DNA of 64,000 nt, from contig CAVYNY010000018.1 in NCBI GenBank assembly GCA_963769935.1, positions 64,001 through 128,000 on the forward strand. Reading direction: 5' to 3'. The notes below the pieces were generated by a model. That model searched no databases, had not been told where the DNA came from, and was given only the letters and a program-made list of their open reading frames with translations. This stretch comes from an uncultured delta proteobacterium. Its GTDB lineage: Bacteria > Desulfobacterota > Desulfobacteria > Desulfobacterales > JAFDCJ01. Position 1 is the first letter of the stretch. Every line of letters begins with the position of its first letter. This document shows positions 14,086 through 53,342 of the stretch, piece after piece. Position numbers and translations under genes: made by a program.

Positions 14086-14088
14086 ATC

Positions 14089-14319: not shown

Positions 14320-14343
14320 GTGTTCTCCCTTTAAATGTTGGTA

Positions 14344-14446
14344 GCAGAACCCGGGCGTGAGCAGCGGCCCACATGATATTCGAGTTTGCACGGCCTTTAC
14401 GAAAAAACGCGATCTTCACGCCGTCTGCTCAACGCATTTGTTCTGC
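14344..14446 (-). other. attC site (103 bp)
   Basis: GCAGAAC-aaatg-CGTTGAGCAG...CTGCTCACG-cccgg-GTTCTGC. Confidence 0.9.
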
Positions 14447-14462
14447 AATTCCAAGCCCAGAG

Positions 14463-15112: not shown

Positions 15113-15166
15113 GTGGTATTATATATCATACCAAAACGGGGTATTCAAGTGTAAAGTGACGTTTCT

Positions 15167-15270
15167 GCAGAACGTCTCGGGATGAGCTGCAGGCCACAGA
15201 GCTACGATTACCTCTGGACTTTACGCAAACCGCCTGCTTATTCCTGTCAGCTCAATCCCGCTTGTTAGGG
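15167..15270 (-). other. attC site (104 bp)
   Basis: CCCTAAC-aagcg-GGATTGAGCTGAC...GCAGCTCATCC-cgagac-GTTCTGC. Confidence 0.9.
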
Positions 15271-15298
15271 CGCACTTGCTTGTTGAGAATCTAGTGAT

Positions 15299-16159: not shown

Positions 16160-16250
16160 GGCATATGCTCTTTGAAAATAGATTTTGGAAAGAAATTATA
16201 TGAATACCCTTTAATATCAAGATTGCACAGGATAGATGATCATTTTAGCG

Positions 16251-16373
16251 CCCTAACGCCCACCATCAATGGGGAGCAGGGTTTACGGACTTCGCAAATG
16301 AGAGTTCAACACTAAAATACGCCAAAACCAAGGTGGCCCGCCCCTGCGAATCCAGTGAATGGTGATGTTAGCC
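16251..16373 (-). other. attC site (123 bp)
   Basis: GGCTAAC-atcac-CATTCACT...GCAGGG..CCCTGC...ATTGATG-gtgggc-GTTAGGG. Confidence 0.85.
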
Positions 16374-35586: not shown

Positions 35587-36750
35587 TCAGGTAGGCCCGC
35601 ATTGCGACGGCGTGAGTGAGCAACCAGAATCGGACGATGCCGGGGCGGATGTTTTGGGCGCGGACGGCCGGGCCGATTTCGGCCGCACTGCCAGAGATCT
35701 TATTTTACGGTATAAAGGTTTAACCGATAGAAACAGTATCAACAGCGCACCTGCCCACTGCACCCAAACCGGCACCAGCTCGGATGCGTGGCCCACCATG
35801 GCTTGCGCTGAAATGCCCATGACGGCATACACATGATCGAGAACCAGGCCGAAAAATACGGCCGAAACCGCTATCGTGCTCAGATAGATAGCGGTGGCCC
35901 GCTTGCCGAGAATTCCCGTCAGAACGGTCAAAGACGCCACATTCGTGGCGGGACCGACCAGTAAAAACACCAGGGCTGCGCCCGGGCTGACGCCTTTTAA
36001 GATCAAGGCCGCAGCAATGGGCGTTGAAGCGGTTGCACAAATATACAATGGAATTCCAATGACCAGCATCAGAAGCATGGCCGACAACCCGGACCCGAGA
36101 TATCTGCTGAAGATATCATCCGGGATTAAAACAGTTATGAACCCCGCCAGCAACACTCCGAAAAGAAACCATTTTGCAATGTCCTCCCAGAGATCGCCAA
36201 AGGCATAGCCTACCCCGGCTTTGACTTTTTCTGAAAAGGTATGGTGACTTCGGTGGGTTTCCGGATCACAATTTTTGCCGTCACAGCAGTTGTCGACCGG
36301 ACAGCTGAGATCCGGTATGATCCTTTTGTTTTCAGCGCTATTGCCGAATAAATTTTCGGCGATGCCGGCGATGGTTGCCGTGATAAAGGCGACCAAAGGT
36401 CTTGCCACCGTCATGATCGGGTCCAGCAGCGCATAGGTGATGGAAATCGAATCCACCCCGGATTCCGGCGTTGATATTAAAAAGGCCGTCGTGGCGCCGT
36501 TGTTGGCGCCCTGTTTACGCAGCGACACGGCTGCGGGCAATACCCCGCAGGATCACAACGGAATGGGAATACCTAGAAAAGCCGCTTTAAAGACCGATGA
36601 AAACCGTCCCCGGCCCAGGTGCCGGATCACTGTGTTCGGATTGAGAAACACCCGCAACAGACCGCTGACCAGCAGACCGAATAAAATATAAACCGAGGCT
36701 TCGAGCAGCAGATGCCACGATTCCTTCAATACATCGAGTATAAAATTCAA
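35587..36750 (-). CDS. DUF318/SO_0444-like metal permease, probable selenoprotein (UGA at 36553-36555)
   Basis: ORFs 36553-36750 and 35587-36540 are in frame: GIPIPL-TGA-SCGVLP matches family PLCSCGVxP; later PLYICATASTP. Confidence 0.85.
36529..36552 (-). promoter_or_regulatory. Candidate SECIS hairpin
   Basis: CTGCGGG-GTATTG-CCCGCAG immediately 3' of in-frame UGA. Confidence 0.55.
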
Positions 36751-37180: not shown

Positions 37181-37555
37181 CTATTCCCTAACGTGTTCCA
37201 GCCCAAGATTTAAAAGCCGGGCGACATGTTCATCATCCAGCGAATAGTACATGACTTGTCCCGCACGCCGTTTTTTGACCAGGGATAGATCTTTCAGACG
37301 GCGCAGCTGATGGGACACGGCCGACTCGCTCAGCCCCGTAAATGCCGCCAGATCGCAGACACACATTTCGACATTTCGCAGGGTCATCACGATTTTGAGG
37401 CGGTTCGGATCACCCAACACCTTGTACGTCAGGGACAGTCGTTCCACTTCGCGGTCCGAAATGGCATCTTCACGCGCCTGCTCAACCCGGTCCAGGTGAA
37501 TCACCCGTATTTGACAGCCGTCTTCCTGGATTAATTTGGCCTTGGCTGATCCCAT
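37181..37555 (-). CDS. ArsR/SmtB (CadC-like) metal-responsive repressor
   Basis: LGDPNRLKI, EMCVCDLA, SAVSHQLRRL, YYSLDDEHV. Confidence 0.92.
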   Translation of the reverse strand: MGSAKAKLIQEDGCQIRVIHLDRVEQAREDAISDREVERLSLTYKVLGDPNRLKIVMTLRNVEMCVCDLAAFTGLSESAVSHQLRRLKDLSLVKKRRAGQVMYYSLDDEHVARLLNLGLEHVRE

Positions 37556-37618
37556 GCCGCCCCCCCTGCTAAAATATCTGAACAGATGTTCATATATTAA
37601 ATCAATGTGCGTCAATAA

Positions 37619-39490
37619 TCAAGATTTTTTTTGCGGCAAGGTAATGGTGAATTCACAGCCGGACCCCTTAAGATTTTTGACGGATATATTGCCTCTGTAT
37701 TTTTTTACGATCCCGTAACTCACGGATAATCCCAGCCCCAGGTTGGCGTCATTGCCCTTCTTGGTGGAATAGAATGGCAGGAAAATATTGTCCGGATTTT
37801 CATCTTCGATTCCGATGCCATCGTCTTTGAAAACAATGCAGGCATAGGGCTTGCCGTCCATCTGGACACTCGAAGTGTGAATGCAAATCTCTCCGCCGCC
37901 AACGGAGGCCTCGAAACTGTTTTTCAACAGATTCAATACCACCTGTTTGATCTCATTCATATTGGCATTCAGATGAATGGGATGCTCGGCCGGGGTATAT
38001 TCAATGCGAATCCTTTTATTTTTGGCGTTGAATCGGATAAGATTAATAATGCTGGCAATCAGGCCGTTTAATTCAAACTCCTCGTTGACCAATTTATTGC
38101 TGTCTGAAAACGAAATCAGGTTGCTGACAATCTGCTTAATATCGGTAAGTTCTTCTTCAATGTTGGCAATGGTTTCATACATTTTTTCTTTGTCGATATG
38201 GAATTTCATAAAATTTAAATGATTATAAATGATCTCCAGGGGGTTGTTGATTTCATGCGCCACCCCGGCGGCCAGAATTCCCACCGAAGCCAGTTTCTCG
38301 GAGAGAATCACCTGCTGGCGCAGCTTTTCCTGTTTGGAGACATCTTCGATGATGGTAATATTGCCGATGAGAAAGGCGCCGTCATATATGGGCAGGATTT
38401 TGATGTTCGTGATGGTCTTATTGGCATTTACAACCATTGGCACATTGTAAAATGTCTTCTCTTTTTTTTCTGAAAAGGCGGATTTGATCAGGTCCAGTGC
38501 GTTTTTACTGCCTTCCGAAAATAATCCGTCCAGAAAGAGATTTCGATAGCCTGCTTTTTCGAGATTGAAATAGGCTTTGCCGTGGTCGTTGATCATTTTA
38601 ATCTTATTTTCATTGTCTGAAACAATGAGGTTGATGGGCAGCTTCTGCAAAATGGCCTCATTGTATCGCAGAAGTTGAATGAAATCCTGGTAGCTTTCGA
38701 TGTCGTCACTTCCGGAAATTTGAGTATAGCACAATTTGATCAGGTTGATTTTGTCAATGTTGTTCACCGAATCGGTTAAAATAATCTCGCCGTTTCGCAG
38801 GATGGTGACCTTATCGGCCAAACCGTAGATATCATCGATGCTGTGCGTGATGCAGAGAATGGATGTCCCTGTTTTCTTCAGTGCGCTTAATATATCGAGA
38901 ATTTTTTCCAGATGCGTTGCCGCCAGCTTTTCAAGCACGGCGTCGAGGATCAGAAGATCAGGTTTGCGGTACACGCTTCTCAGAATATGGATGACCATCC
39001 GGTCGGACAACGGTAAATTGTTAATAATGGCTGCGGGATCGATGTCGAAACCGTAGCCGGACAGCAGGGCACTCGCCTCTTCCTGCATCAGTCGTCTCTT
39101 TTTGATGAGGGGAAACGGATGATAGACTTTATCCGGGATGAGAAGATTTTCAGCGACGGAGAAATAATTAATGAGTTGAATCTCCTGGGAAGCCATCTCG
39201 ATGTTCAATTTACGCGCTTTACGCAGTGTGAAGTGAGGATAGCTTTCGTCTTTGAACAAAAGTTCACCGGAGGCGGGCTTGATCGCGCCGCAGAGGATCA
39301 TCCCCAACGTAGACTTGCCGGAACCGTGATCTCCCACGATGGCGTGAAATTCAGACCGGTGAAGTTCCAGGCTGATGTTTTTCAGAACCTGAATATTATC
39401 CCGGTTAAAATTGATATTCTTCAGCCTTAATAGGGTCGGCGGACTGGAAGGCTGGGATCGACTAACCTGTTCCTGTAAGTGATATTCCAT
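37619..39490 (-). CDS. Hybrid ABC-ATPase-domain / PAS / histidine kinase
   Basis: Walker A GDHGSGKST, Walker B LLILDA, ITH switch; PAS-like ILQKLPINLIVSD; H-box AHEINNPL; N, G1, F, G2 boxes; no TM helix. Confidence 0.9.
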   Translation of the reverse strand: MEYHLQEQVSRSQPSSPPTLLRLKNINFNRDNIQVLKNISLELHRSEFHAIVGDHGSGKSTLGMILCGAIKPASGELLFKDESYPHFTLRKARKLNIEMASQEIQLINYFSVAENLLIPDKVYHPFPLIKKRRLMQEEASALLSGYGFDIDPAAIINNLPLSDRMVIHILRSVYRKPDLLILDAVLEKLAATHLEKILDILSALKKTGTSILCITHSIDDIYGLADKVTILRNGEIILTDSVNNIDKINLIKLCYTQISGSDDIESYQDFIQLLRYNEAILQKLPINLIVSDNENKIKMINDHGKAYFNLEKAGYRNLFLDGLFSEGSKNALDLIKSAFSEKKEKTFYNVPMVVNANKTITNIKILPIYDGAFLIGNITIIEDVSKQEKLRQQVILSEKLASVGILAAGVAHEINNPLEIIYNHLNFMKFHIDKEKMYETIANIEEELTDIKQIVSNLISFSDSNKLVNEEFELNGLIASIINLIRFNAKNKRIRIEYTPAEHPIHLNANMNEIKQVVLNLLKNSFEASVGGGEICIHTSSVQMDGKPYACIVFKDDGIGIEDENPDNIFLPFYSTKKGNDANLGLGLSVSYGIVKKYRGNISVKNLKGSGCEFTITLPQKKS

Positions 39491-40805
39491 ACTTCTTTAA
39501 CTTGTTATACAAGGTTTTCCTGCTGATATCCAACAATCTTGCGGCCTTGCGCTTATTGTAATCGGATTGCTTCAGCATCTTCAAAATCAGCATTTTTTCG
39601 GTTTCTTCCATGATGTTGTATTCGCTTTGTTCTAGCTTCATATCGATAAACGCCGCCGGCAAATCCTCAATTCGAATGTCGCCCGTCGTTGCCATGGTGG
39701 CCGCGTAATTAATGGTATTTTTAAGCTCTCTGATATTACCGGGCCAGTGATAATGACAAAAACGCTTCAACACGTCTTCGGATACCCGCTTGACCATTTT
39801 TGGGTTGTTGTTTGAAATTTGGCTGAGAAAATAATTTACCAGAACAGGAATATCCTCCATGCGCTCCTTGAGCGGGGGAATGTGCAGGGTCGCCGCATTG
39901 ATGCGATAGTATAGATCTTCTCTAAAACGCCCCGCTTCGATAAAGGCTCTAATATCCTTATTGGTGGAAGCGATAAAGCGCACGTCGATGGTGATGTTCT
40001 TGTTGCCGCCGATTCGTCTGATCTCATTGTTTTGAAGGGTTCGAAGTATTTTGGCCTGGGTCGAAGGCGCCATGTCGCCGATTTCATCCAGGTGCAGGGT
40101 GCCTCCATCGGCCCTTTCAAAAATACCGATAAAGGCTGCATCCGCGCCGGTATAGGCACCCTTCTCATGGCCGAACAGCTCGTTGTCCAGCAGCGACTCG
40201 GGAAATGCCGCACAGTTGATGCTGTTGATCTGATATGCGCTGCGTTTTGAGTTGTTGTGGATGAAATTCGCCAGCAGTTCCTTGCCCGTCCCATTTTCCC
40301 CGATGATGAGAATCGGAATATCGGTTTTGGCCAGCCGTTTTGCTTTATTGCACACATCGTTCATTTTCTGGTTGCGCGTGATGATACGATCCGTTAAAGC
40401 GACGATTCTGTTCTTTAAGCGCTGATTTTCATTTTTAAGATCCGCCATCCGAACGGCGTTCTCCACGATTTTCAATATGTTGTTGAAATTTAACGGCTTC
40501 TGCAAGTAATCAAAGGCACCGAGTTTTACGGATTTGACGGCGGTTTCAATGGAGCCGTACCCGGTAATCATGATGACGGGCAGTTTACTATCCCAGGACA
40601 ACAGCCGCTCAAGGACGCTGACGCCGTCTTCTTTGCCCAGCACAATATCCAAAAGAACCACTCCCACCGGGTGTTGCGATAATATGTCAAAGGCCTTGGT
40701 GCTGTTTTCGGCATAATGGCAACGGTATCCGAGTTGATCAAAATTCTGGGCCAGGCTTTTACAGAGTTTGATGTTGTCATCGATGATCAGAATACCCGCT
40801 GCCAT
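39462..40805 (-). CDS. Sigma54-dependent response regulator (REC-AAA+-Fis HTH)
   Basis: IIDD, LLDI, GENGTGKE, LFGHEKGAYTGA, LDEIG, WPGNIREL, SRKTLYNK. Confidence 0.95.
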   Translation of the reverse strand: MAAGILIIDDNIKLCKSLAQNFDQLGYRCHYAENSTKAFDILSQHPVGVVLLDIVLGKEDGVSVLERLLSWDSKLPVIMITGYGSIETAVKSVKLGAFDYLQKPLNFNNILKIVENAVRMADLKNENQRLKNRIVALTDRIITRNQKMNDVCNKAKRLAKTDIPILIIGENGTGKELLANFIHNNSKRSAYQINSINCAAFPESLLDNELFGHEKGAYTGADAAFIGIFERADGGTLHLDEIGDMAPSTQAKILRTLQNNEIRRIGGNKNITIDVRFIASTNKDIRAFIEAGRFREDLYYRINAATLHIPPLKERMEDIPVLVNYFLSQISNNNPKMVKRVSEDVLKRFCHYHWPGNIRELKNTINYAATMATTGDIRIEDLPAAFIDMKLEQSEYNIMEETEKMLILKMLKQSDYNKRKAARLLDISRKTLYNKLKKYGISLTGTG

Positions 40806-40817: not shown

Positions 40818-40861
40818 TTACACGTAGTTACACAATGTGTGTAATATTTACACAATGTGTG
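40818..40861. promoter_or_regulatory. Candidate upstream activating sequence
   Basis: TTACACAATGTGTG twice; palindromes TTACACA-ATG-TGTGTAA and TGTGTAA-TAT-TTACACA. Confidence 0.65.
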
Positions 40862-41079: not shown

Positions 41080-41095
41080 TGGCACATGGATTGCT
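41080..41095 (+). promoter_or_regulatory. Sigma54 -24/-12 promoter
   Basis: TGGCAC-ATGGA-TTGCT, exact consensus spacing, upstream of sugar operon. Confidence 0.85.
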
Positions 41096-41254: not shown

Positions 41255-41893
41255 ATGAAAGAAGCGTGTCGATGGGGATTGGTCCTCGGCATCCTGATGT
41301 CGGTCATCGTGGCAGGGTCGTCATCTGCCCAAGCGAATGCGGGCGCGCTGAAATGCGTCGGAATCTACTCGGAAACCGCGGCGGGACAGATCAGCTACAG
41401 AATCGGGACCGGCGACTGGGTGGTTATCAAGGTTGGGGATGTCATTCCCGCCGACGCACAGATTCGGGTAAACGTGGCCCAGGATTGGATCGAGCTGACG
41501 CCTTCCAACAATCCAGACGCTGTCTACAAAATCAGCGGAAGCAGCGCGGGAGACATCGTCCGGACGGTAGCGGACATACAGACGAACTCGCCGAAGGGGG
41601 TCAGCTTTCCGCAGCCAAGCGGAGGCACGCCGGATCCGAAATTCGCGAACAAACTGGTCGTCACTCAGTACAATTCGCGGCACGTTTATCGTCAGCCCGG
41701 GCAGCGAGGCAGGGACATTCAGTACGGTGATGTTCTGGAGGCCAACGGCACGGTGAGCATCATCGCTATCAACACGACCATCACCCTCATGAAAGCAGAC
41801 GGAACTACGATCAACGTCATTGGACCGCTGACGTTCAGCGTCCAGAAGGCGATTGCGGGCGAGAAGCTCTACAAGTTCTTGAATGCGCCGTGA
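41255..41893 (+). CDS. Secreted hypothetical protein with two beta-rich repeats
   Basis: Signal peptide ending SSAQA; WVVIKVGDVIP / RDIQYGDVLE repeats; strong RBS. Confidence 0.75.
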   Translation: MKEACRWGLVLGILMSVIVAGSSSAQANAGALKCVGIYSETAAGQISYRIGTGDWVVIKVGDVIPADAQIRVNVAQDWIELTPSNNPDAVYKISGSSAGDIVRTVADIQTNSPKGVSFPQPSGGTPDPKFANKLVVTQYNSRHVYRQPGQRGRDIQYGDVLEANGTVSIIAINTTITLMKADGTTINVIGPLTFSVQKAIAGEKLYKFLNAP

Positions 41894-42057: not shown

Positions 42058-43098
42058 ATGAAGCCAACAGCAAAAGTGCTTTTAGGGATCGCAATCGTCA
42101 TGCTCGTCCTGGGTGGGATGATGTTTGCAGGCGGGCTGAAGGAAGGCAGTTACGCATGGGGAGCGTCAATGTCGGAGAGCGGATTTCCGGCCATCACGCA
42201 TCGGCCGATTGTGGTCGGCTTCTCGCAGATCGGTTCTGAGAGTGAATGGCGAACAGCCGATACGGCGTCCGTCCAGCAGTCATTCAAGAACGATCCAGAG
42301 ATGAAACTGATCTACTCCGACGCACAGCAGAAGCAGGAGAATCAGATACAGGCGCTGCGGTCATTCGTCGCACGCAAGGTCGACGTTATCCTGTTCACGG
42401 CGCTGGTTGAGACCGGCTACCGCCCGGTTCTCGAGGAGGCAAAGGCCGCTCGCATTCCCGTCATCATGATCGACCGTGATGTCGCAAAGGAGGATCGTGA
42501 CCTGCGGCTCACAATCATGGGCTCAAATTTCGTGAAGGAGGGCGAGAAGGCCGCCACCTGGCTCGCGAACTACCTGAAGCAGCAGGGCAAAGACGATGGT
42601 ACCAAGACCATCAACATCGTCGAGCTCCAGGGGACCACCGGCTCGGCTCCCGCTATCGATCGGTACAACGGTTTCCGCAACATCATGAAAGATCATCCCA
42701 ACTGGACAATCACCCGTTCCCAGACCGGGAACTTCACGAGCTCAGAGGGCAAGGCGGTCATGGAAGCGTTTTTGAAGGCAGACAAAAACATCGACGTGCT
42801 CTATGCCCACAATGACCAGATGGCGCTCGGCGCGATCCAGGCCATTAAAGAAGCGGGATTGAAGCCCGGCAAAGACATCATCATCGTCTCTATTGACGCC
42901 GTCAAGGGAGCGTTCGAAGCTATGGTGAAGGGCGAGCTGAATGCCTCCATCGAGTGCAACCCGCTCCTCGGACCGCAGGCGCTTCAGGCCGTGCACGATC
43001 TGGCCGACGGGATGAAGCTCCCGGAAAGGATCTGGACGATCGAAGGTGTTTTCGATCAAACCAACGCTGCGGCAGCGCTGCCGACGCGTCAGTACTAG
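42058..43098 (+). CDS. Sugar ABC substrate-binding protein, YtfQ (galactofuranose)-like
   Basis: VGFSQIGSESEWRTA, SDAQQKQENQI, ELQGTTGS, HNDQMALGA, ECNPLLGP. Confidence 0.88.
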   Translation: MKPTAKVLLGIAIVMLVLGGMMFAGGLKEGSYAWGASMSESGFPAITHRPIVVGFSQIGSESEWRTADTASVQQSFKNDPEMKLIYSDAQQKQENQIQALRSFVARKVDVILFTALVETGYRPVLEEAKAARIPVIMIDRDVAKEDRDLRLTIMGSNFVKEGEKAATWLANYLKQQGKDDGTKTINIVELQGTTGSAPAIDRYNGFRNIMKDHPNWTITRSQTGNFTSSEGKAVMEAFLKADKNIDVLYAHNDQMALGAIQAIKEAGLKPGKDIIIVSIDAVKGAFEAMVKGELNASIECNPLLGPQALQAVHDLADGMKLPERIWTIEGVFDQTNAAAALPTRQY

Positions 43099-43182
43099 CC
43101 GCATATTTGAGCGACACGCAACCTCTCCGGACCGCTTTGATCCTTCGAAGCGGCCCGGATTCAGGTGAGAGGAGGAAGTGAT

Positions 43183-44715
43183 ATGCCGGGCGGCGCCCCA
43201 ATTTTGGAAATGAAGGGCATTCACAAGTCCTTCCCGGGGGTCAAGGCGCTGTCGGGCGTGGATTTCCGCCTCTTCAAGGGCGAAGTGCACGCCGTCATGG
43301 GCCAGAACGGCGCCGGAAAATCCACCCTGGTAAAGGTAATGACCGGCGTGCACCGGCAGGATTCGGGCGAGCTGCTGCTTGAGGGCCGACCGATCAGGCC
43401 CGATTCTCCGTTGGCGGCGCAGCGGTTGGGAATCAGCACGGTCTATCAGGAAATCAACCTCTGCCCCAACCTATCGGTCGCGGAGAACATCTTCATCGGA
43501 AGGCAGCCGATAAAGCTCGGAAGAATCGACTGGAAAAAGATGAACGCACGGGCCCAGGAGCTCTTGCGTAGGCTAAATATCACCGTCAATGTGACGCAAG
43601 TCTTGTCGTCCTATTCAATCGCAATCCAGCAGATGGTCGCCATCGCCCGAGTGTTGGACATCTCATCGAAGATCCTGATTCTGGACGAGCCAACTTCCAG
43701 CTTGGATGAGAACGAGGTCGGGCTTCTTTTCAGCGTCATCCGCTCCTTGCGCGATGGTGGAATGGCGATTCTGTTCATTACCCACTTCCTCGATCAAACC
43801 TACCAGATTTCGGATCGCATTACGATATTGAAAAACGGAACTTTCGTCGGCGAATATGCGACCCAGAGTCTTCCCAAGCTCGATCTCATATCTAAGATGC
43901 TCGGCAAGGAATTGTCCGAGTTCGACTACGCTTCCAATGGCACACGAAAAAAGCGAAATCTCGCATTGGCTGCAGATGATGCTGTGCCGCTGTTGAGCGT
44001 CAAGGAGCTGGGGTTGCGGGGTTCTGTAACTCCGTTCAGTCTCGATCTGCACAAAGGCGAGGTGCTTGGATTCGCGGGACTGCTGGGCTCGGGCCGGACC
44101 GAGACAGCGCGGCTCATCTTCGGCGTCGAACGTGCGAGCCAGGGCGAGGTCTCCGTGCAAAGCAAGAGGATCGGCCTGAGCAGCCCGAGAAGCGCCATGC
44201 TCGCGGGAATGAGCTTCTGCCCCGAAGACCGAAAGAACGAGGGGATCTTTTCCGAGCTTTCCGTTCGAGAGAACATCATCCTGGCGCTGCAGGGAAGCCG
44301 AGGAATCCTCAAGCATCTCTCAGCCCAGAGACAGCTGGAAATTGCCGACGAGCTGATACGGTCCCTTGGGATCATCACACCGAGCGCAAACAGCGTGGCC
44401 GGCCAACTCAGCGGGGGAAACCAGCAGAAGGTGATGCTCGCGCGGTGGCTCGCTACCCGTCCCATCATCCTTATCCTCGACGAGCCGACGCGAGGAATCG
44501 ATGTCGGCGCCAAGCTGGAAGTCATGGCGCTGATTCTCAAGCTTAGCAACGAGGGAATGGGGGTCATCTTCATCTCGGCAGAATTTGAAGAGGTGCTTCG
44601 CTGCAGCGACCGAATCGCGATTCTGAAAGACCGCGCCAAAATCGCTGAGCTCCAGGGCGACGATATGACGGAGGCAAACATTTTGCGTGTCATCGCGGAG
44701 GAAACACAGGAATGA
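43183..44715 (+). CDS. Sugar ABC ATPase, two NBDs (YtfR-like)
   Basis: GQNGAGKST, LDEPTSSL, LSGGNQQK, DEPTRGIDVGAK. Confidence 0.93.
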   Translation: MPGGAPILEMKGIHKSFPGVKALSGVDFRLFKGEVHAVMGQNGAGKSTLVKVMTGVHRQDSGELLLEGRPIRPDSPLAAQRLGISTVYQEINLCPNLSVAENIFIGRQPIKLGRIDWKKMNARAQELLRRLNITVNVTQVLSSYSIAIQQMVAIARVLDISSKILILDEPTSSLDENEVGLLFSVIRSLRDGGMAILFITHFLDQTYQISDRITILKNGTFVGEYATQSLPKLDLISKMLGKELSEFDYASNGTRKKRNLALAADDAVPLLSVKELGLRGSVTPFSLDLHKGEVLGFAGLLGSGRTETARLIFGVERASQGEVSVQSKRIGLSSPRSAMLAGMSFCPEDRKNEGIFSELSVRENIILALQGSRGILKHLSAQRQLEIADELIRSLGIITPSANSVAGQLSGGNQQKVMLARWLATRPIILILDEPTRGIDVGAKLEVMALILKLSNEGMGVIFISAEFEEVLRCSDRIAILKDRAKIAELQGDDMTEANILRVIAEETQE

Positions 44716-45761
44716 CATCGTTCCATCCCATACGTTCCGTATTCGCAGCACGGGATGCAAGCAAAAGCATGATCCTATGGTCCCTCGTAGCCCTGGGCTG
44801 CCTCTTCCTGTTCAACCTGTTTTTTACCCCTCACTTCTTCAGCCTCGAGATCAAAGAGGGACACCTATACGGCAACCTTATTGATATTCTAAAGAACGGC
44901 GCGCCGATCATGTTGCTTGCCATCGGGATGACACTTGTCATCGCCACTCGCGGCATCGATATCTCCGTGGGCTCTGTGGTCGCGATTTCCGCAGGTACCG
45001 TTGCAATTTTGCTCGGTGGTGATCTGGCGGGGCATGCAAAGACCCCCCTTGCGATCGCAATGGGCGCTGCTCTATTGATCTCGATTGCCGCCGGAGCGTG
45101 GAATGGGATGCTGGTCTCGCGAATCGGGATGCAGCCCATTATCGCCACGCTGATCTTGTTTGTCGCAGGACGCGGGATCGCAATGGTCTTTACGAATGCA
45201 ATGGTCATCTGGCTCTACGTAAAGCCCTTTGCGCTCCTGGGGCAGGGCTACGTCTTGGGCTTGCCCTTCTCCATCTACATCGTGGGTTTCGTGTTGATCG
45301 TAACGGCGCTCTTTACACGAAGAACAGCGCTCGGCCTCTTCATAGAAGCCGTAGGCATAAACCCTCAGGCTGCCCGCCTTAGCGGCATTAACTCCAAGAA
45401 CATTCTCTTGCTGGTTTACACCTTCAGTGGATTGTGCGCGGGGATATCCGGGTTGATTGTCTGCTCGACCGTCATGAGCGCGGATGGTAACAACGCGGGC
45501 AATCTCTTTGAGCTCGATGCCATTCTCGCCGTTGTGCTGGGCGGCACGTCGCTCAACGGCGGCAAGTTCACGCTCATCGGCAGCATGATCGGCGCTCTCA
45601 TCATCCAGACGCTGACAACCACCATCTATGCATTCAACGTTCCTCCTGAGATTTCCCAGGTGGTCAAGGCGTTAGTTGTCTACGCCGTATGCCTGCTGCA
45701 GTCAGCGGAATTCCGGGGTCGGGTTGCAGGATTGTTCGGCAGAAAGGCGGCTACGGCATGA
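44712..45761 (+). CDS. Sugar ABC permease (YtfT-like)
   Basis: GIDISVGS, QPIIATL, ELDAILAVVLGG. Confidence 0.9.
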   Translation: MTSFHPIRSVFAARDASKSMILWSLVALGCLFLFNLFFTPHFFSLEIKEGHLYGNLIDILKNGAPIMLLAIGMTLVIATRGIDISVGSVVAISAGTVAILLGGDLAGHAKTPLAIAMGAALLISIAAGAWNGMLVSRIGMQPIIATLILFVAGRGIAMVFTNAMVIWLYVKPFALLGQGYVLGLPFSIYIVGFVLIVTALFTRRTALGLFIEAVGINPQAARLSGINSKNILLLVYTFSGLCAGISGLIVCSTVMSADGNNAGNLFELDAILAVVLGGTSLNGGKFTLIGSMIGALIIQTLTTTIYAFNVPPEISQVVKALVVYAVCLLQSAEFRGRVAGLFGRKAATA

Positions 45762-46780
45762 AAAGGAAACCTCTTATTGATCCCCGCAACCTACCGGTTC
45801 TCGTAACCTTGGGGCTGTTCATCGTCATGTTCGGGCTCGGGTCGATTGCATTCACGAATTTCTTCTCGATGCAGAACTTCTTCAACCTCTTTATCAACAA
45901 TGCGTACCTGCTCGCTCTTGCGGTCGGCATGACCTTCGTCATCATATCGGGCGGCATCGATCTTTCGGTCGGCTCCATGCTTGCCCTATCAACGATGGTG
46001 TCGGCGAGCCTTGTTGAAAAGTCGCACATGAGTCCCGCCATCGTAATACCGATCGTCCTCTTGATGGGGGTAGTGTTCGGCCTCTTCATGGGCTACCTCA
46101 TCCAGGCCTTCAACATACCGCCCTTCATCGTTACCTTGGCCGGTCTGTACCTGTTCCGTGGGCTGTGTTACGTGGTCAGTATCGACACGATCGCCTTTAA
46201 AAACGATTTCTACCAAACAGTCGCGCGCACCCGCCTGGCAATTATCGGGGAGAACTTTCTTTCGCCGGGCGCAATTGTCGCGCTCGTTGCCGTCCTTGCA
46301 GGTTTGTTCGTTTCCCGCTATACGAAGTTCGGAAGGACCGTCTACGCAATCGGTGGCAACGAGCAGTCCGCAATTCTCATGGGTCTTCCAGTGGTGCGAA
46401 CGAAAATGGCGATTTACGCGGTGAGCGGCTTCTGCTCGGCGCTGGCCGGAATCATCTTCACCTTCTTCACGCTCTCCGGCTACGCGTTGGACGGAAAGGG
46501 GATGGAGCTAGACGCGATTGCGACCGTTGTCATCGGCGGCACCTTGTTGACCGGCGGGGCGGGCAGCATCTTAGGCTCGCTCTTGGGCGTGCTTGTATAT
46601 GGCACAATTCAGGTGCTCATTGTCTTCCAGGGAACGCTCAATTCCTGGTGGACGCGAATCGTGATCGGCTTCCTCTTTTTCGCGGTCTGCTTTATGCAGC
46701 GTATCTTCGAATCGGCGCGAGGCGCCGCCCCGAGAAGGGCGATCCCGAAAGCGTCGGAAAGCGTTTCTGCCGAAAGATAG
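45758..46780 (+). CDS. Sugar ABC permease (YjfF-like)
   Basis: GGIDLSVGS, GMELDAIATVVIGG, NSWWTRI. Confidence 0.9.
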   Translation: MKRKPLIDPRNLPVLVTLGLFIVMFGLGSIAFTNFFSMQNFFNLFINNAYLLALAVGMTFVIISGGIDLSVGSMLALSTMVSASLVEKSHMSPAIVIPIVLLMGVVFGLFMGYLIQAFNIPPFIVTLAGLYLFRGLCYVVSIDTIAFKNDFYQTVARTRLAIIGENFLSPGAIVALVAVLAGLFVSRYTKFGRTVYAIGGNEQSAILMGLPVVRTKMAIYAVSGFCSALAGIIFTFFTLSGYALDGKGMELDAIATVVIGGTLLTGGAGSILGSLLGVLVYGTIQVLIVFQGTLNSWWTRIVIGFLFFAVCFMQRIFESARGAAPRRAIPKASESVSAER

Positions 46781-47056: not shown

Positions 47057-48064
47057 ATGGCAAAACGAACCACTATAATTTTACTGGTACTAATGCTGAT
47101 CGTCGGCGCGGCGCTGACGGACATTGGGGTTGCGAACGCCCAAGCCGCCGGCAAACAGTTTGAAGGCATCCGGATCGTTTTTTTCCCCGGCGGCAGTGAA
47201 GGGGGACCCTTTGCGTCGGTGGTTTACCGCGGCGCCAAAGCCGCTGAGGAAGATCTCGGCTGCATGGTGGATTACGTCTGGTCGGGTTGGCTGCCTGATA
47301 AAATGGTGGCGCAGTTCAAAGATGCGATTGCCAGGAGGCCGGACGGCATCGCCATCATGGGCCACCCGGGAGTTGCCGCTTATGCGCCGCTGGTGGACGA
47401 GGCGGAGTCCAAAGGCATTATTGTGACCAGCCAGAACACCACGCTGCCGGCGATCGAAGACAAATACAAGGCCCGGGGCTTTGGCTATGTCGGGCAGGAA
47501 CTCTATCCTTCCGGCGTCATGCTGGCCAAAGGTGCGGCTCAAAGAGCCGGTCTGAAAAAAGGTGACCGGGCCATGGTCTGGGGGCTGCTGGGGCAGGAAA
47601 CCCGGGGGCTGAGGACCAAAGGCTGTATCGATGCGCTCAAGCAGCTGGGAGTCACGGTCGATTATATCGAAATCTCGGATGCCGTTAACAGTGATGCGTC
47701 GCTGGGCACGCCGGTGGTTGCCAGCTATATCGCCACCCACCCGGATGTAAAACTGCTCATCACGGACCACGGTGCGTTGACCGCCACGCTGGGCACCTAC
47801 CTGAATGGCGCCCGCAAAAAACCGGGTGATATTTACACCGCCGGGTTTGATTTGAGTGCAGCCACCGCCGCGGCCATCACGGAAGGCTGGGTCGGCTGTG
47901 TTCTCGATCAGCAACCGTGGCTTCAAGGGTACCTGCCGATCCTGCAGATCTGCCTGACCAAAAAATACGGCTTTGCCGGTCTGCATATTGATACGGGCGC
48001 TGCCATCATCGATAAGACGAATATCGATTTTGTTGCGCCGCTGGCGGAAAAAGGCATCCGCTAA
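47057..48064 (+). CDS. Sugar ABC substrate-binding protein (RbsB-like fold)
   Basis: Signal peptide, PDGIAI, GFDLS, DQQPWLQGY, IDTG. Confidence 0.88.
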   Translation: MAKRTTIILLVLMLIVGAALTDIGVANAQAAGKQFEGIRIVFFPGGSEGGPFASVVYRGAKAAEEDLGCMVDYVWSGWLPDKMVAQFKDAIARRPDGIAIMGHPGVAAYAPLVDEAESKGIIVTSQNTTLPAIEDKYKARGFGYVGQELYPSGVMLAKGAAQRAGLKKGDRAMVWGLLGQETRGLRTKGCIDALKQLGVTVDYIEISDAVNSDASLGTPVVASYIATHPDVKLLITDHGALTATLGTYLNGARKKPGDIYTAGFDLSAATAAAITEGWVGCVLDQQPWLQGYLPILQICLTKKYGFAGLHIDTGAAIIDKTNIDFVAPLAEKGIR

Positions 48065-48075
48065 AAGGAGACCAG

Positions 48076-48855
48076 ATGGCCGCCGCGAATTCCGATCTTG
48101 CGTTGCTGTCCATGTCGAACATTTCAAAATCCTTTGGCGAGGTGGATGTGCTCACCAATGTCGATTTCGCGGTCGGCACGAATGAAATCGTCGGCCTGGT
48201 GGGCGACAACGGCGCCGGCAAATCCACCTTGATCAAAATCATCACCGGTGTGCATCCACCCACCGCCGGCGAGATTTACTTCAAAGGCGAGAAAATCACC
48301 CGGCATTCGGTCAAGCGCTCCCGCCGCCTGGGCATCGAAACCGTCTATCAGGAAAGGGCACTGGCCGATCAGCAGGCGCTCTGGCGCAATGTATTTGCCG
48401 GACGGGAGCTGACCTATAAATTCGGCTTTCTTAAAGTCAAACAGCAAAAAGCGGAAACCGACCGGCTGATCCGGGAGCATATGGGGTTTACCTCTAAAGC
48501 CATTGCCACGGATTCCATGGTTTTATCCCTGTCCGGCGGCGAGAAGCAGGGGATTGCTATCGGCCGCGCTCTTTACTTCGAAGCGGATTTAATCATTCTC
48601 GATGAGCCGACCATGGGCCTTTCCCTCTCCGAGACCCGCAAAGTGCTGGATTTTGTCCGCAACATCAAAAGGCAGGGAAAATCGGCCATCTTTATCAGCC
48701 ACAATATTTACTATGTATATCCGGTGGCCGACCGGTTCGTTATTCTGGACCGCGGCAGCGTGGCCGGAGAATTCTTGAAAGAAGACATTTCTCAGGAGGA
48801 TCTTGTTGAAAAGATGGTTCAGCTGGCACGCACGGGGAAATTGAGTCCGTATTGA
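48076..48855 (+). CDS. Sugar ABC ATPase, single NBD
   Basis: GDNGAGKST, LSGGEKQ, LDEPT, ISHN. Confidence 0.92.
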   Translation: MAAANSDLALLSMSNISKSFGEVDVLTNVDFAVGTNEIVGLVGDNGAGKSTLIKIITGVHPPTAGEIYFKGEKITRHSVKRSRRLGIETVYQERALADQQALWRNVFAGRELTYKFGFLKVKQQKAETDRLIREHMGFTSKAIATDSMVLSLSGGEKQGIAIGRALYFEADLIILDEPTMGLSLSETRKVLDFVRNIKRQGKSAIFISHNIYYVYPVADRFVILDRGSVAGEFLKEDISQEDLVEKMVQLARTGKLSPY

Positions 48856-49024
48856 ACAGAAAATGCCCCCTGCGGCGAAAATTGCGGAATGGGCAAAAAG
48901 AATCCGCCGGCGGACCGTGTTCTCAGTGCCTTGTGGTGAAAAGATATTACTGCTAATACGTCACCGCAATTATGAATAAGAGCACTAAATGATTGCTTTA
49001 TTTTAAAAATCTGAGGATAGCCGG

Positions 49025-49984
49025 TTGAAAACAGCTACAATGCGACAGGCAAGGCTGGAGCTGAGTATCGCCGCCGTAATGGTGGGTATCTTTTTGCTGT
49101 TTATTGTCGGCAACCCCAGGGTGTTTACGCGATTTGATATCTACTACTCCTTCATGTCGACCATTCCGTTTTTCGGGATTATGGCCCTGGCCATGACGCC
49201 GGTGGTAACCCTGGGTGAGATGGATCTCTCCTTTCCCTCCGTGCTGGCCCTGTCCGCTCTTCTTTTCGGCAAGGTCTTTATGCTGACGGGAAACATCTGG
49301 CTGGCCGTCCTGGTGTGTCTGACAATCGGCCTGCTGGCCGGGGCCGTGAACGCTGTTCTGATCGTTCGGGTGGGAATACCATCACTGGTGGCCACCATCG
49401 GAACCATGTTCTTTTTTCGCGGCATGGTCAACGTCATCGCCCAGGGTAAGGGAATACCGCTCGTCGCAGCGAAAACGACCCTGGTTTACAGTTTGGCGGT
49501 CGGGCGAATCGGCGGCGTTGTCCCGGCCCAGGCGGTATGGATGCTGGTGCTGGGCATTGCCTTCTGGCTATTGATGAATCGTCACCGATTCGGCTCCCAC
49601 ATTCTTTTTGTCGGCGACAACATGGATAGCTCCCGCATGATGGGCATCAACGTTGAACGGGTGAAAACGATCGTCTTTATGCAGATGGGGTTTTTTGCGG
49701 CGTTTGCCGGGATATTATCCACGCTTGAAGTCACCTACTTCTGGCCGAGTCAGGGCCAGGGGTATCTGCTGACCACCCTGGCGGCCGTATTCATCGGGGG
49801 CACCTCCGTCTTCGGCGGAATGGGCACGATTTTCGGAACCTTTGCCGGCGCCGTCATCATCGGTTCACTGGAAGCCGGAATCATTGCCATCGGTCTGACC
49901 GGATTCTGGATTCAGCTGATATACGGTTTGATTATCATGGTCTCGGTGTCGATTTACGCGATCCTGTTGAAGCGCAAAGCATAG
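49025..49984 (+). CDS. Sugar ABC permease
   Basis: GEMDLS, GIPSLVATIG, AAVFIGGTS. Confidence 0.9.
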   Translation: MKTATMRQARLELSIAAVMVGIFLLFIVGNPRVFTRFDIYYSFMSTIPFFGIMALAMTPVVTLGEMDLSFPSVLALSALLFGKVFMLTGNIWLAVLVCLTIGLLAGAVNAVLIVRVGIPSLVATIGTMFFFRGMVNVIAQGKGIPLVAAKTTLVYSLAVGRIGGVVPAQAVWMLVLGIAFWLLMNRHRFGSHILFVGDNMDSSRMMGINVERVKTIVFMQMGFFAAFAGILSTLEVTYFWPSQGQGYLLTTLAAVFIGGTSVFGGMGTIFGTFAGAVIIGSLEAGIIAIGLTGFWIQLIYGLIIMVSVSIYAILLKRKA

Positions 49985-50001: not shown

Positions 50002-50169
50002 TGATGAATTTGTAAAAAGTCGAATTCATCATGTCTGTGGTATTTGTGTTTGGTGTTTGGTATCAAGTATTCAGCGGCATATGAGGGTGTCAGGTCACTA
50101 AACACAAAATACAAAACACTAAACACTCTCGTAAAAAGATCATTTTTTTGACTTTTTACGAGACCGTCA
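50002..50169. mobile_element. MITE-like element containing nested heptamer-arm repeat
   Basis: TGATGAATTTGTAAAAAGTC ... GACTTTTTACGAGACCGTCA inverted ends; ATTT on both flanks; inner GTGTTTG/CTAAACA arms. Confidence 0.65.
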
Positions 50170-50195
50170 ATTTCGACGAAGGGAGTTCAACATAT

Positions 50196-51203
50196 ATGAA
50201 AGTCTTACGTTTGCACGCGGTCGGCGATTTACGACTGCATGATGAAAATGATCCGCTTCCCAATGACGATGAGAGTTTGCTGCGTATAACGGCAGTCGGG
50301 ATTTGCGGGTCCGATTTACATTGGTATGAGGAGGCCGGCATTGGCGATGCGCATTTAAAAAGACCGCTTGTTCTCGGCCACGAGTTTGCGGGAATCATTG
50401 ATTCCGGAGATCAGCAGGGCCGGATAGCAGCGGTTGATCCGGCCATTGCCTGCCGGCAATGCCGCTATTGTGAGGAGGGCAACCCCAACCTGTGTGACAA
50501 TGTGCGCTTTGCCGGCCACGATGCGGTGGATGGCGCCCTGCGTGAAAAAATTTGCTGGCCGAAATCCCTGGTGCACGTGTTGCCGGATGAATTTACCGCT
50601 GCCGACGGGGCGATGTTGGAACCGCTGGGAGTTGCCCTGCATGCGTTGTCTTTGGGGCATGTGCTGCCGGGAATGTCGGTCGGCATATTCGGGTGCGGGC
50701 CGATTGGTCTTTTGCTGGTTCAACTTGCGCGGGCGGCCGGCGCGGCTAAAATCATCGCCACCGACCGTTTAGCCAACCGTCTAGATGCGGCCAGGGCATT
50801 TGGTGCTTCCAGCATCATATTGGCGGCCGGCGGCCGGGAAAACGCGGAGGTGGAAGCCGCCGCCCCGGGCGACGGCGTCGATATCGCCTTTGAAGCCGCC
50901 GGCGACAACGAGGCCGTCGCAACAGCGATTCGGGCAACCCGGCCGGGCAGACAGGTTATTCTGATCGGGATTCCGGATGACGATCGAACGGCATTTCCAG
51001 CTTCGATTGCCCGGCGCAAAGGATTGACGCTAAAGCTGGTGCGAAGGATGAAACACACCTACCCGCTCGCCATTCGGATGGTGCAAAGCGGCGTTGTGGA
51101 CGTCCGGTCCATAGTAACACACCGCTTTCCATTATCCGAATACAAAACGGCCTTTGAAACTGCCAAAAAAAGAGAAGGCCTAAAGATTGTTATCGAACCA
51201 TAA
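50196..51203 (+). CDS. Zn-dependent polyol (sorbitol/iditol-type) dehydrogenase
   Basis: GICGSDLH, GHE, CxxCxxC...C, GCGPIG. Confidence 0.88.
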   Translation: MKVLRLHAVGDLRLHDENDPLPNDDESLLRITAVGICGSDLHWYEEAGIGDAHLKRPLVLGHEFAGIIDSGDQQGRIAAVDPAIACRQCRYCEEGNPNLCDNVRFAGHDAVDGALREKICWPKSLVHVLPDEFTAADGAMLEPLGVALHALSLGHVLPGMSVGIFGCGPIGLLLVQLARAAGAAKIIATDRLANRLDAARAFGASSIILAAGGRENAEVEAAAPGDGVDIAFEAAGDNEAVATAIRATRPGRQVILIGIPDDDRTAFPASIARRKGLTLKLVRRMKHTYPLAIRMVQSGVVDVRSIVTHRFPLSEYKTAFETAKKREGLKIVIEP

Positions 51204-51443
51204 TGCCGGAAGCAGATCTTCAAAAAACGAATGTCGAATGTCGATCGTCAAATGGAGGTATTCTGACTATTTTTAGGAATGACCGAGCGCAGTGAAACCA
51301 GCTTTCGAGATGCTGGGATTCGTCATTATGCTGTTCTAAGGTTTGCTGTTCAAACTTGGTGATGTTTCACATGAGCTCGGCCTCTGGCCGCGAGCGTTCA
51401 GTCTGATCAGAAAAAAAACTTTATAATTGGAGAGAAAAAGACG

Positions 51444-51596
51444 AATGGATTCTCATTTTAAAGAAAATAATTGGACAGGATCAACAGGATCGTTAGGATA
51501 ATGCGGCCTTCGGCCGAAAGGCCCCTCGCCGCAGGCGAAAAAATTCCTGATAATCCTGTTAATCCTGTCTAAATAAAATATAAGCCGAATCCATTC
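51444..51596. repeat. Nested palindromic element
   Basis: GAATGGATTC/GAATCCATTC outer IR, GACAGGAT/ATCCTGTC nonamer arms, central CGGCCTTCGGCCG. Confidence 0.75.
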
Positions 51597-51662
51597 CACA
51601 TACCTTCATTGAAGTTTCACATGAGATCTCCGGGTTTTGGAAGCGGTCAGAAGGAGTAAATC

Positions 51663-53342
51663 ATGAGCACAAACAAATATGCCCTTGGCATCGATTTCGG
51701 CACCGAATCGGGACGCGCGGTTTTGGTGGAAACCAAGACCGGCCGGGAAATTGCCGCAGCCGTTTATTCCTATGAAAACGGCGTCATTGATGAAAAACTG
51801 CCGGTGGATGGTGCGCCGGTCCGGCTCGAACCCGAATGGGCGCTGCAGGACCCGCAAGACTATATTCGAACCTTCCGGCAGACGGTACCGGCGGTACTGT
51901 CCCAAGCCGGGGTTCATCCGGAGGATGTCATCGGCATCGGCATCGACTTTACCGCCTGCACCATGATGCCGGTCAAAAGCGACGGTACGCCCCTGTGCGA
52001 CCTGCCCGAATATCGACGCCACCCGCATGCCTGGGTCAAACTTTGGAAACACCACGCCGCCCAGCCGGAAGCGGATAAAATCAACGCCGCCGCTCGCCGC
52101 CTGGGCGAAGCCTGGCTTGACCGCTATGGCGGGAAAATTTCATCGGAATGGTTTTTTTCCAAAGCGCTGCAGATCCTGGACGAGGCGCCTGAAATCTATG
52201 CCGCCGCCGATCGTCTGATCGAAGCCGCCGACTGGGTGGTCTGGCAATTGACCGGCGTCGAAAAGCGCAATTCATGCACCGCCGGCTACAAAGCCATGTG
52301 GTCCAAACGGGAAGGGTACCCGCCGAACGCCTTTTTCAGGGAGCTGGACCCGCGCCTGGAAAAGATCGTCGACGAAAAAATGGCGCGCACGATTTACCCC
52401 ATCGGCGCCAGGGCCGGGGAACTCACCGCCCGGGCCGCCGCCTGGACCGGCCTCAAGGAGGGCACGGCGGTGGCCGTCGCCAATGTCGACGCCCATGTTT
52501 CGGTGCCGGCCGCCACGGTGACCGAACCCGGACGGATGGTGATGATTATGGGCACCAGTATCTGCCACATGTTGCTGGGCGAGGAAGAGCGGCGGGTGGA
52601 AGGGATGTGCGGGGTGGTCGAAGACGGTATCATTCCGGGGTTGTTCGGATATGAGGCCGGCCAATCCGGGGTCGGCGATATTTTTGCCTGGTTTGTAAAT
52701 AACGGCATTCCCGCCGCCTATCAGCGCGAGGCCCGCGAACGGGCCATGGATATTCATCAGCTGCTGGAAGAAAAGGCGGCCTTGCAAAAACCCGGTCAGC
52801 ACGGACTGTTGGCGCTGGATTGGTGGAACGGCAACCGCTCGGTGCTGGTGGACGTGGAACTCTCGGGCCTTTTAATCGGAGCGACCCTGGCCACCAAAGC
52901 CGAAGACATTTACCGGTCGCTGATTGAAGCGACGGCCTACGGAACCCGGGTCATCATCGAAGCCTTTGAAAAAAACGGTGTGCGGGTGGAAGAGCTCGTC
53001 GCCTGCGGCGGACTGCCGGAAAAAAACAAGCTGTTGATGCAAATATATGCCGATGTCAGTGGGCGTAATTTTAAAATTTCAGCCGCTAAACAAACGCCCG
53101 CCCTGGGGTCGGCGATGTTCGGGGCGGTGGCGGCCGGCCGCCGGGCCGGCGGGTATGACACCATTATTGAAGCCGCCCGCCGCATGGCCAGGTTAAAGGA
53201 TGAAGTGTACCGGCCGATCCCTGCCAATCGGAAAATTTATGATCGGCTGTTTGCCGATTACGTGCGCCTGCACGATTACTTCGGTCGCGGGGAAAACAAT
53301 GTGATGAAGACCCTCAAGCGGATACGGAACGAGGTGAGCTAA
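51663..53342 (+). CDS. araB: L-ribulokinase
   Basis: [42 protein letters not shown]. Confidence 0.93.

Follow-up and report, generated by a model that had tools for sequence, protein, structure and literature searches.

What does a soluble histidine kinase sense when its amino-terminal domain is that of a sugar-importer ATPase? The question is raised by a 64,000-nucleotide (nt) stretch of DNA from an uncultured delta proteobacterium of the order Desulfobacterales (contig CAVYNY010000018.1 of assembly GCA_963769935.1, positions 64,001 to 128,000; hereafter the window), in which a gene at 37619..39490 on the minus strand encodes a 623-aa sensor kinase (P0001) composed of an ATP-binding cassette (ABC) nucleotide-binding domain (NBD), a PAS domain and the HisKA and HATPase_c modules. 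An initial annotation of this DNA had proposed that the kinase joins an importer as a pseudo-ATPase subunit, or pairs with a neighboring ATPase, and converts transport activity or nucleotide state into phosphorylation. Our analysis supports this interpretation in part: the fusion is real, conserved and, as far as searched, undescribed, its tie to sugar importers is borne out across deep divergence, and it constitutes a variant of transporter-coupled two-component sensing.

A soluble kinase with an ABC domain in the sensor position

Pfam assigned ABC_tran to residues 36-183 of the protein (E = 1.1e-18), HisKA to residues 406-463 (E = 3.3e-7) and HATPase_c to residues 513-621 (E = 1.2e-18). No Pfam PAS family was called in the window kinase at E ≤ 0.01, and such families are present in many of its relatives. 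An AlphaFold2 model based on an alignment of 121 family representatives (mean pLDDT 89.5) divided the chain into the ABC domain (residues 19-255; 38726..39436), mostly at pLDDT above 90, a low-confidence linker (256-264), a PAS-type α/β unit (265-383; 38342..38698) and, within residues 385-620 (37631..38338), the DHp helices (385-462) with His412 and the catalytic ATP-binding domain (470-620). In Foldseek comparisons, the N-terminal domain superimposed on LptB (TM 0.87-0.88, rmsd 3.0 Å) and the PAS-kinase part matched PAS/LOV kinases, e.g., the LOV-kinase 4gcz; the 60 best matches listed from a sequence search of solved structures were all ABC ATPases. The hallmark residues of a HisKA-type kinase (the phospho-acceptor H412 and N524, D556, G558, G560, G585 and G587, which belong to the Asn and Gly-rich boxes of the GHKL domain) are invariant in all 121 sequences. 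No membrane segment is expected in the kinase, the top 19-residue Kyte-Doolittle mean being 1.49. Reading frame, Pfam matches, structural model and hydropathy hence agree on the domain order and the lack of transmembrane helices that had been read from the ORF at the outset.

The ABC domain carries a Walker A motif of the GxxGxGK(S/T) form (GDHGSGKST, with Lys59), the Q-loop Gln (Q102) and the H-loop His (H216, within ITHS). In its Walker B stretch (LLILDAVLEKL), Asp183 is retained and Ala184 takes the place of the catalytic Glu, the D-loop reads AVLEKL rather than EPTxxLD, and LPLSD stands where the LSGGQ signature would be. A single ABC_tran stretch is present, and the second NBD that characterizes CUT2 sugar ATPases is missing from the chain. 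All these motifs read exactly as the initial annotation gave them, from GDHGSGKST, the Q-loop Gln and LPLSD to DAVL and the H-switch. Its term 'degenerate' has to be qualified for the family, in most members of which Walker A, the Walker B Asp-Glu pair, the Q-loop and the H-loop are kept.

The fusion is widespread and its ABC domain is under purifying selection

A search of 1.84 billion cluster representatives (50% clustering) returned more than 100 full-length relatives, down to 27% identity, and 119 of the best 120 database clusters combine ABC_tran, HisKA and HATPase_c at a length of ~600-660 residues, the exception being a 393-residue fragment. The relatives bear source names such as Pseudodesulfovibrio indicus (a cultured organism; relative P0031), Candidatus Vecturithrix granuli (KSB3), Desulfomarina and Spirochaetales, and within the 90% cluster that holds the window protein one member carries the name of an Olavius-associated deltaproteobacterium; overall, the family ranges over Desulfobacterota, Spirochaetota, the candidate phylum KSB3 and many metagenomes. 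In addition, contigs from two sequencing studies span both junctions: the match is perfect where the NBD meets PAS (X2, 38450-38959), and two of 989 nt differ over the overlap between the kinase gene and the adjacent regulator gene (X1, 39250-40238), these runs being short contigs for which depth and gaps are uninformative. The architecture search called for at the outset hence revealed a widespread fusion, found in more than 100 sequence clusters, and not a peculiarity of one assembly.

Within this range the distribution is patchy. Among 22 other genomes of the same genus, the full-length protein was found in one only (G018), accompanied by a contig-end fragment in a second (G022) and three further matches limited to the kinase part. 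In a sample of 400 other genomes of the phylum, with four candidates scored per genome, none matched residues 1-395 at E ≤ 1e-50.

Compared with the G018 ortholog, dN/dS amounted to 0.062 for the NBD, 0.071 for the PAS domain and 0.077 for the kinase part. The NBD is under strong purifying selection, which disposes of the neutral evolution that the initial annotation had allowed for. Across the family, mean pairwise identity was 0.30 for the NBD, 0.35 for the catalytic domain and 0.24 for the PAS domain, the least kept of the three. As a separate observation, metatranscriptome contigs from sediment and mangrove (X18 and X19; ~92-97% identical) cover parts of the kinase and regulator genes, a hint that relatives are expressed; DNA carry-over is possible, which leaves transcription short of proof.

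The ABC domain stems from the first half of tandem CUT2 ATPases

Among the NCBIfam models, those of the CUT2 ATPases YtfR, AraG, AlsA, LsrA, XylG, GguA, MglA and RbsA matched residues 19-254 of the kinase with E-values from 3.6e-44 to 4.7e-32, as compared to 1.8e-23 for the best ABC model outside CUT2, all of the CUT2 scores lying far below the model cut-offs. The match always fell within the first half of the CUT2 model, at positions ~1-240 (for YtfR, the best at E = 3.6e-44, positions 1-233 of 492). In the tandem ATPases encoded next to the kinases of the family, the first domain (NBD1) has consensus Walker A, Walker B, Q-loop and H-loop motifs and a degenerate signature (YSIAIQQ, LPIGQRQ, LSISYQQ), while in the second (NBD2) the Walker A Lys is replaced by Arg, the Q-loop Gln by Glu and the H-loop His by Ser or Ala, and the signature is a consensus LSGGNQQ; with the Walker motifs of NBD1 and the signature of NBD2, the tandem protein thus possesses one consensus ATP site. 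The kinase NBD displays the motif pattern of NBD1 and not of NBD2, and kinase NBDs share on average 27% identity with neighboring NBD1s and 20% with NBD2s. By profile matches and motif logic, the kinase NBD derives from NBD1 of tandem CUT2 sugar ATPases. Since neighboring NBD1s are already degenerate in their signature, the poor signature of the kinase is inherited rather than the product of decay after the fusion.

In a tree, 44 kinase NBDs formed one clade (support 0.993). Recurrent capture of, or gene conversion from, the neighboring ATPase was not detected, as kinase NBDs were 27.3% identical to the NBD1 at their own locus and 27.1% to those at other loci (a difference reached in 1224 of 5000 shuffles). 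A single clade with no excess likeness to the neighbor's NBD1 speaks for one ancient capture rather than several.

Relative to NBD1, the kinase NBD has retained the ATP-site and Q-loop positions and has lost the last Gln of the signature, and the D-loop Pro and Thr, conserved in 98% and 91% of NBD1s, are replaced across the kinase family. The lost D-loop Pro-Thr and signature Gln are elements of the NBD-NBD interface. The signature Ser and Gly positions are likewise unconserved in the family. Among the 121 representatives, the Walker A Lys59 was found in 116, Asp183 in 117, Glu184 in 106, the Q-loop Gln102 in 92 and the H-loop His216 in 84. The non-canonical catalytic position that the initial annotation stressed is therefore a property of the window protein rather than a family trait, and the signature, also singled out there, is a legacy of NBD1.

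Closer to the window protein, the Walker A Lys is present in 120 of 120 relatives and the catalytic Glu in 89; the other 31 have Ala (26), Thr (4) or Ser (1) instead, and the window kinase belongs with this minority. A Tyr expected to stack on adenine accompanies the Glu in 82 of these 89 proteins and is absent from all 31 that lack the Glu. While 29 of the 31 lie outside the clade spanned by the Glu-bearing proteins, P0025 and P0027 fall inside it, so that the Glu was lost at least twice, with no single clean event. Judging from these residues, the ABC domain of the window's Glu-less, Tyr-less subgroup cannot be a working ATPase; at most it would bind nucleotide.

Regulator, promoter and importers form a conserved neighborhood

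The start of the kinase gene overlaps by 29 nt the 3′ end of a gene on the same strand (39462..40805, minus) for a 447-aa NtrC-type response regulator with REC, sigma-54 AAA+ and Fis-type helix-turn-helix (HTH) domains (Response_reg, E = 5.6e-25; Sigma54_activat, E = 2.3e-65; HTH_8, E = 1.4e-14). Its GAFTGA-type loop reads GAYTGA. Adjoining the regulator start, two copies of TTACACAATGTGTG, each an inverted repeat, occupy 40825..40861 and represent a candidate binding site of the regulator. At a distance of ~220-250 bp from these repeats, a sigma-54 promoter element, TGGCACATGGATTGCT (41080..41095, plus strand), is directed at the importer genes and is the sole perfect match to TGGCAC-N5-TTGCW within the 64-kb window. 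Counted with up to two mismatches, sigma-54-like matches in the window numbered 29 against 36 expected and thus did not exceed chance, so that only the perfect match and its conservation carry weight. Both the promoter element and the inverted repeats are kept in the closest relatives, L089 and L090, where the intervening intergenic DNA diverges, and the genome to which the window belongs encodes RpoN (rpoN).

Two importers are encoded divergently from this pair, as the initial annotation had stated, and both are of the CUT2 type, their permeases belonging to the Pfam family BPD_transp_2. Importer 1 (42058..46780, plus strand) consists of a YtfQ-like binding protein (42058-43098), a tandem-NBD ATPase (43165-44715) and two permeases (44712-45761 and 45689-46780, the latter with a likely start at 45758). 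Importer 2 (47057..49984, plus strand) consists of a binding protein (47057-48064), a single-NBD ATPase with all canonical motifs, including LSGGEKQ, DEPT and the H-loop His (48076-48855), and a permease (49025-49984). Between the promoter and importer 1, the first ORF on the plus strand (41255..41893) encodes 212 residues with a signal-peptide-like start; it matched no family, and no counterpart was found in the loci L088, L089, L090, L092, L082 and L083. Downstream of importer 2 (50148..53342, plus strand), genes identified by Pfam for a Zn-dependent dehydrogenase (50148-51203) and an FGGY sugar kinase (51663-53342) are likely the catabolic genes of the same cluster, and an FGGY kinase or dehydrogenase also adjoins the relatives in L001 and L004.

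To assess how far this arrangement is shared, we compared 6 genome loci (L001-L004, L009 and L022, the full-length relatives among 80 scanned loci, most of which held ordinary kinases) and 79 metagenome loci, merging kinases of at least 90% identity into 69 clusters and classifying ORFs by profiles derived from the window plus the first six loci. All 60 clusters with at least 1.4 kb of upstream sequence have the sigma-54 regulator gene immediately before the kinase gene on the same strand. In 27 clusters the sequence reached 6 kb or more upstream of the kinase and 4 kb or more downstream, which made them fully assessable; every one of them has two or more parts of a CUT2 importer, located no farther than 6.5 kb upstream or 4.5 kb downstream. 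All three importer parts are present in 25 of the 27, the parts are divergent from the regulator in 23, a tandem ATPase is found in all 27, and 2 of them additionally have a single-NBD ATPase in transporter context. In three further clusters, L128, L142 and L163, which lack upstream sequence, no importer part was seen. The neighborhood is therefore conserved. Of 45 divergent intergenic regions from other clusters (mean length 381 nt), 37 carried a -24/-12 element (GG and GC cores, at most two mismatches) on the strand of the importer genes; the background rate is 0.105 per kb. The regulator pairing, the conserved sigma-54 promoter facing the importer and the presence of RpoN make it well supported that the kinase-regulator pair controls the importer operon.

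The binding proteins encoded beside the kinases fall nearest to a range of subfamilies (YtfQ, RhaS, RbsB, XylF and rhizopine-type), all below the curated cut-offs, and three had no match at E ≤ 1e-20. Furthermore, an importer has been exchanged next to a conserved kinase: between the window and L089 or L090, the kinases are 92% and 91% and the regulators 90% and 87% identical, whereas importer 1 is just 48-62% identical to its counterparts at the same place (L089:3295-8080 and L090:3405-8079). The sensing module thus stayed and the cassette behind the promoter changed, the binding proteins in question all being YtfQ-like. Importer 2 is 93-96% identical in L089 and was not found within the 21 kb available for L090.

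Several loci have features of their own. In L022 (4974-11824), two paralogous regulator-kinase pairs stand back to back, each by its own CUT2 importer, and L104 also has two pairs. In L001, from the KSB3 genome, a gene on the minus strand (13693-16332) for an 879-aa chemoreceptor (MCPsignal) with a C-terminal Peripla_BP_4 domain adjoins the kinase locus. In the window, the GC content of the kinase (0.444) and regulator (0.469) genes is below that of the importer and catabolic genes (0.535-0.595), a trend repeated in L089 and L090; this could reflect a separate origin of the pair or a different codon use.

How the kinase may read the importer

In the control scheme that this arrangement suggests, the kinase would phosphorylate the regulator at Asp53, and the phosphorylated regulator would bind the inverted repeats at 40825-40861 and open the promoter at 41080, so that the 212-aa ORF and importer 1 would be expressed, probably along with importer 2 and the dehydrogenase and sugar kinase genes. 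As to the input, a sugar is invisible to an ATPase domain and is encountered only by the binding protein and the permease. The NBD1-like domain likely docks on the importer. That it sits on the coupling loop of the permease, and from there reads the state of the transporter, is the account that we tentatively prefer. The identity of the sugar would then be read by the transporter and not by the kinase: a sugar-loaded binding protein engaging the permease might alter the coupling loop and thereby move the two NBD-like domains of the kinase dimer, and this movement might in turn set autophosphorylation via the PAS domain. Reading of the transporter is favored over reading of the sugar because the family accompanies binding proteins of several subfamilies, because a cassette was exchanged and because the coupling loop is nearly invariant (G208, G215, N217 and G225 in 40 CUT2 permeases).

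Covariation is consistent with contact at this loop and gives a hint at best. Columns of the kinase NBD were compared with those of the permease in 37 loci with a single permease gene. Of the top 50 corrected pairs, 3 connect the coupling loop with the groove, defined by analogy with ABC structures as the Q-loop and the post-Walker-A region, against an expectation of 0.64 (4 of 264 shuffles reached 3); the same count was 3 for the true NBD1 (6 of 160 shuffles) and 4 for NBD2 (0 of 120). Raw mutual information, scanned for the kinase NBD and the NBD1 control, reached high z values against shuffles in both sets and was set aside as driven by relatedness.

Several observations weigh against docking. 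The covariation sample is small, the groove region was defined by analogy and the shuffles ignore relatedness; averaged over blocks, covariation was not significant for the kinase NBD (61 of 264 shuffles reached the value), and in a column-wise match test the best p of 0.0007 over 194 columns failed correction. The gene neighborhood by itself is what any dedicated operon regulator would show. ABC proteins that do not associate with a membrane domain can likewise have a conserved Q-loop and Walker motifs, and in the window's subgroup, with the catalytic Glu and the stacking Tyr gone, nucleotide binding is itself uncertain. The NBD-NBD elements that the kinase has lost are those that normally convert a change in the permease into domain closure. 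The kinase NBD is no closer to the NBD1 of its own neighbor (27.3%) than to others (27.1%), and its own genome (G000, ~8 Mb) contains 18 tandem CUT2 ATPase genes (E ≤ 1e-60) and one ABC-domain kinase; with so many ATPases and a near-invariant loop, a generic interface invites cross-talk, and docking would need extra specificity. Finally, every assessable locus has a complete ATPase, so that a docking kinase would need to compete with it or use free permease.

Some of these observations are what one would expect under the main rival, in which the NBD binds ATP or ADP without touching a transporter, reporting the energy state or driving dimer closure, and the PAS domain senses a cytoplasmic sugar or metabolite. 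Importer adjacency would then reflect regulation, together with the fact that the NBD was once copied from an importer. Kinases with a nucleotide-binding N-terminal domain exist, KdpD being one. The Walker A Lys, kept by 116 of the 121 representatives and by all 120 close relatives, suits such a nucleotide gate, as does the low conservation of the PAS domain (0.24), expected if its ligand varies with the sugar; the missing likeness to the cognate NBD1 and the 18 CUT2 ATPases of the genome, which make generic docking awkward, fit as well. Yet the kinase and regulator remained ~90% identical while the adjacent importer was replaced by one 48-62% identical, and the importers beside the family have binding proteins from at least five subfamilies, both of which count against this rival. 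Moreover, an ATP-driven NBD sandwich needs the signature and D-loop, precisely the elements that were lost, a subgroup without stacking Tyr and catalytic Glu makes a poor pure nucleotide sensor, and the loop-groove covariation, weak as it is, equals that of true NBDs. We consider this rival possible and on the unlikely side.

Less probable is a head-to-tail pairing of the kinase NBD with the NBD2 half of a tandem ATPase or with the single-NBD ATPase at 48076, through which the kinase would read the nucleotide cycle of the motor. The motif logic is attractive, in that the kinase NBD keeps the Walker A, Walker B, Q-loop and H-loop motifs that NBD1 contributes to the single consensus ATP site and lacks a signature, which is present both in NBD2 (LSGGNQQ) and in the 48076 protein (LSGGEKQ, with DEPT and the H-loop His). 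Importer 2, the one with the single-NBD ATPase, has also kept pace with the kinase in L089 (93-96% identity). However, NBD2 is covalently tied to its own NBD1 in 27 of 27 assessable clusters, and the D-loop that mediates NBD-NBD contact is replaced in the kinase. The heterodimer with the 48076 protein suggested in the initial annotation does not fit the distribution either, given that a single-NBD ATPase in transporter context occurs in 2 of 27 clusters only and that L090, whose kinase is 91% identical, shows no importer 2 within 21 kb. Nor was a longer fusion of the kinase with a second NBD found: at E ≤ 1e-30 there were no fused forms of at least 1092 residues, which is weak evidence, and an 851-aa relative (P0222) merely has two HisKA stretches. 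Taken together, such pairing is improbable. Lastly, a chimeric assembly or a decaying, functionless domain, as the non-canonical catalytic Glu, D-loop and signature of the window protein might suggest, can be dismissed in view of the recurrence of the architecture (119 of the best 120 clusters, more than 100 representatives at 50% clustering), the contigs from two studies that match across the junctions and the dN/dS of 0.062 for the NBD.

Returning to docking on the permease, one form that it might take is a kinase dimer replacing the ATPase on a fraction of the permease complexes, which would yield a 'receptor version' of the importer, where the arrival of a sugar-loaded binding protein at the permease leads to phosphorylation instead of transport. 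We regard this arrangement as conceivable and would not count on it. Were it true, the kinase, regulator and promoter would act as a plug-and-play inducer, as the coupling loop is nearly invariant: any CUT2 cassette placed behind the promoter would gain substrate-specific induction with no new sensor having to evolve, as the cassette exchange suggests.

Other genes in the window

As drawn, an ORF for an ArsR-family HTH protein (37181-37615, minus strand) begins 4 nt past the kinase stop and is followed by a gene for an ArsP-type permease (35587-36540, minus strand). Neither gene was seen beside the kinase in L088, L089, L090, L092, L082 and L083, several of which have little or no downstream DNA. 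Rfam gave no match in the window.

Relation to known systems

Full-text literature searches found no description of a kinase with an ABC ATPase input domain, in keeping with the initial annotation, which knew of no characterized example. In the few systems known to sense through a transporter, the kinase and the transporter are separate proteins; here, the kinase itself incorporates a transporter's motor domain. Should this domain dock on a permease, it would offer a direct and portable way of making any binding-protein-dependent sugar importer a receptor, it would provide a simple soluble protein for studying how ABC membrane domains signal to ATPase domains, and the database names 'ABC-type branched-chain amino acid transport ATPase' and 'AtoS', now on relatives, would be corrected.

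Of the two lineages joined in this protein, the ABC domain shares with CUT2 NBD1 (TC 3.A.1.2) the Walker A, Q-loop and H-loop motifs, the degenerate signature and the ABC fold. It differs from CUT2 ATPases in being followed by PAS and kinase domains where NBD2 would follow, and in the loss of the D-loop Pro-Thr, the signature Gln and, in a subgroup, the catalytic Glu. The remainder resembles AtoS/NtrB-like PAS-HisKA kinases, with residues 270-622 matching the AtoS model (E = 2.4e-58) and an NtrC-type regulator as partner; unlike AtoS, whose model it matches with 198 bits against a cut-off of 646, the window kinase lacks membrane segments and has an ABC N-terminus. In MalK-MalT and PstB-PhoU-PhoR, a regulator is informed of the transport state by the ATPase subunit of an ABC importer, through contacts between separate proteins; there, the ATPase domain is not part of the regulator or kinase.

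A transporter piece built into a kinase as its input is known from kinases fused to an SLC5 transporter domain, as reported in PMC5715377. Kinases of this CbrA/CrbS type carry a whole membrane transporter domain, with a STAC domain, N-terminal to the kinase, whereas the window kinase carries a cytoplasmic ATPase domain and leaves the membrane part separate; Pfam gave only ABC_tran, HisKA and HATPase_c, and no SLC5 or STAC domain, in the window protein. A related logic is found in the BceAB-BceS/BceR modules of Firmicutes, in which, as reported in PMC10314905 and PMC6978683, a kinase without a ligand sensor of its own is signaled by an ABC transporter and induces the transporter genes. According to PMC10314905, BceS is a membrane kinase, a separate protein that contacts the permease through transmembrane helices. 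The window kinase, with no membrane segment and next to BPD_transp_2 permeases, does not belong to the Bce type and may work similarly, the proposed likeness being that of a kinase that takes its signal from an ABC transporter and induces the genes of that transporter. It would do so as a soluble protein with the motor domain fused to it, in the service of a binding-protein-dependent sugar importer and through a sigma-54 regulator.

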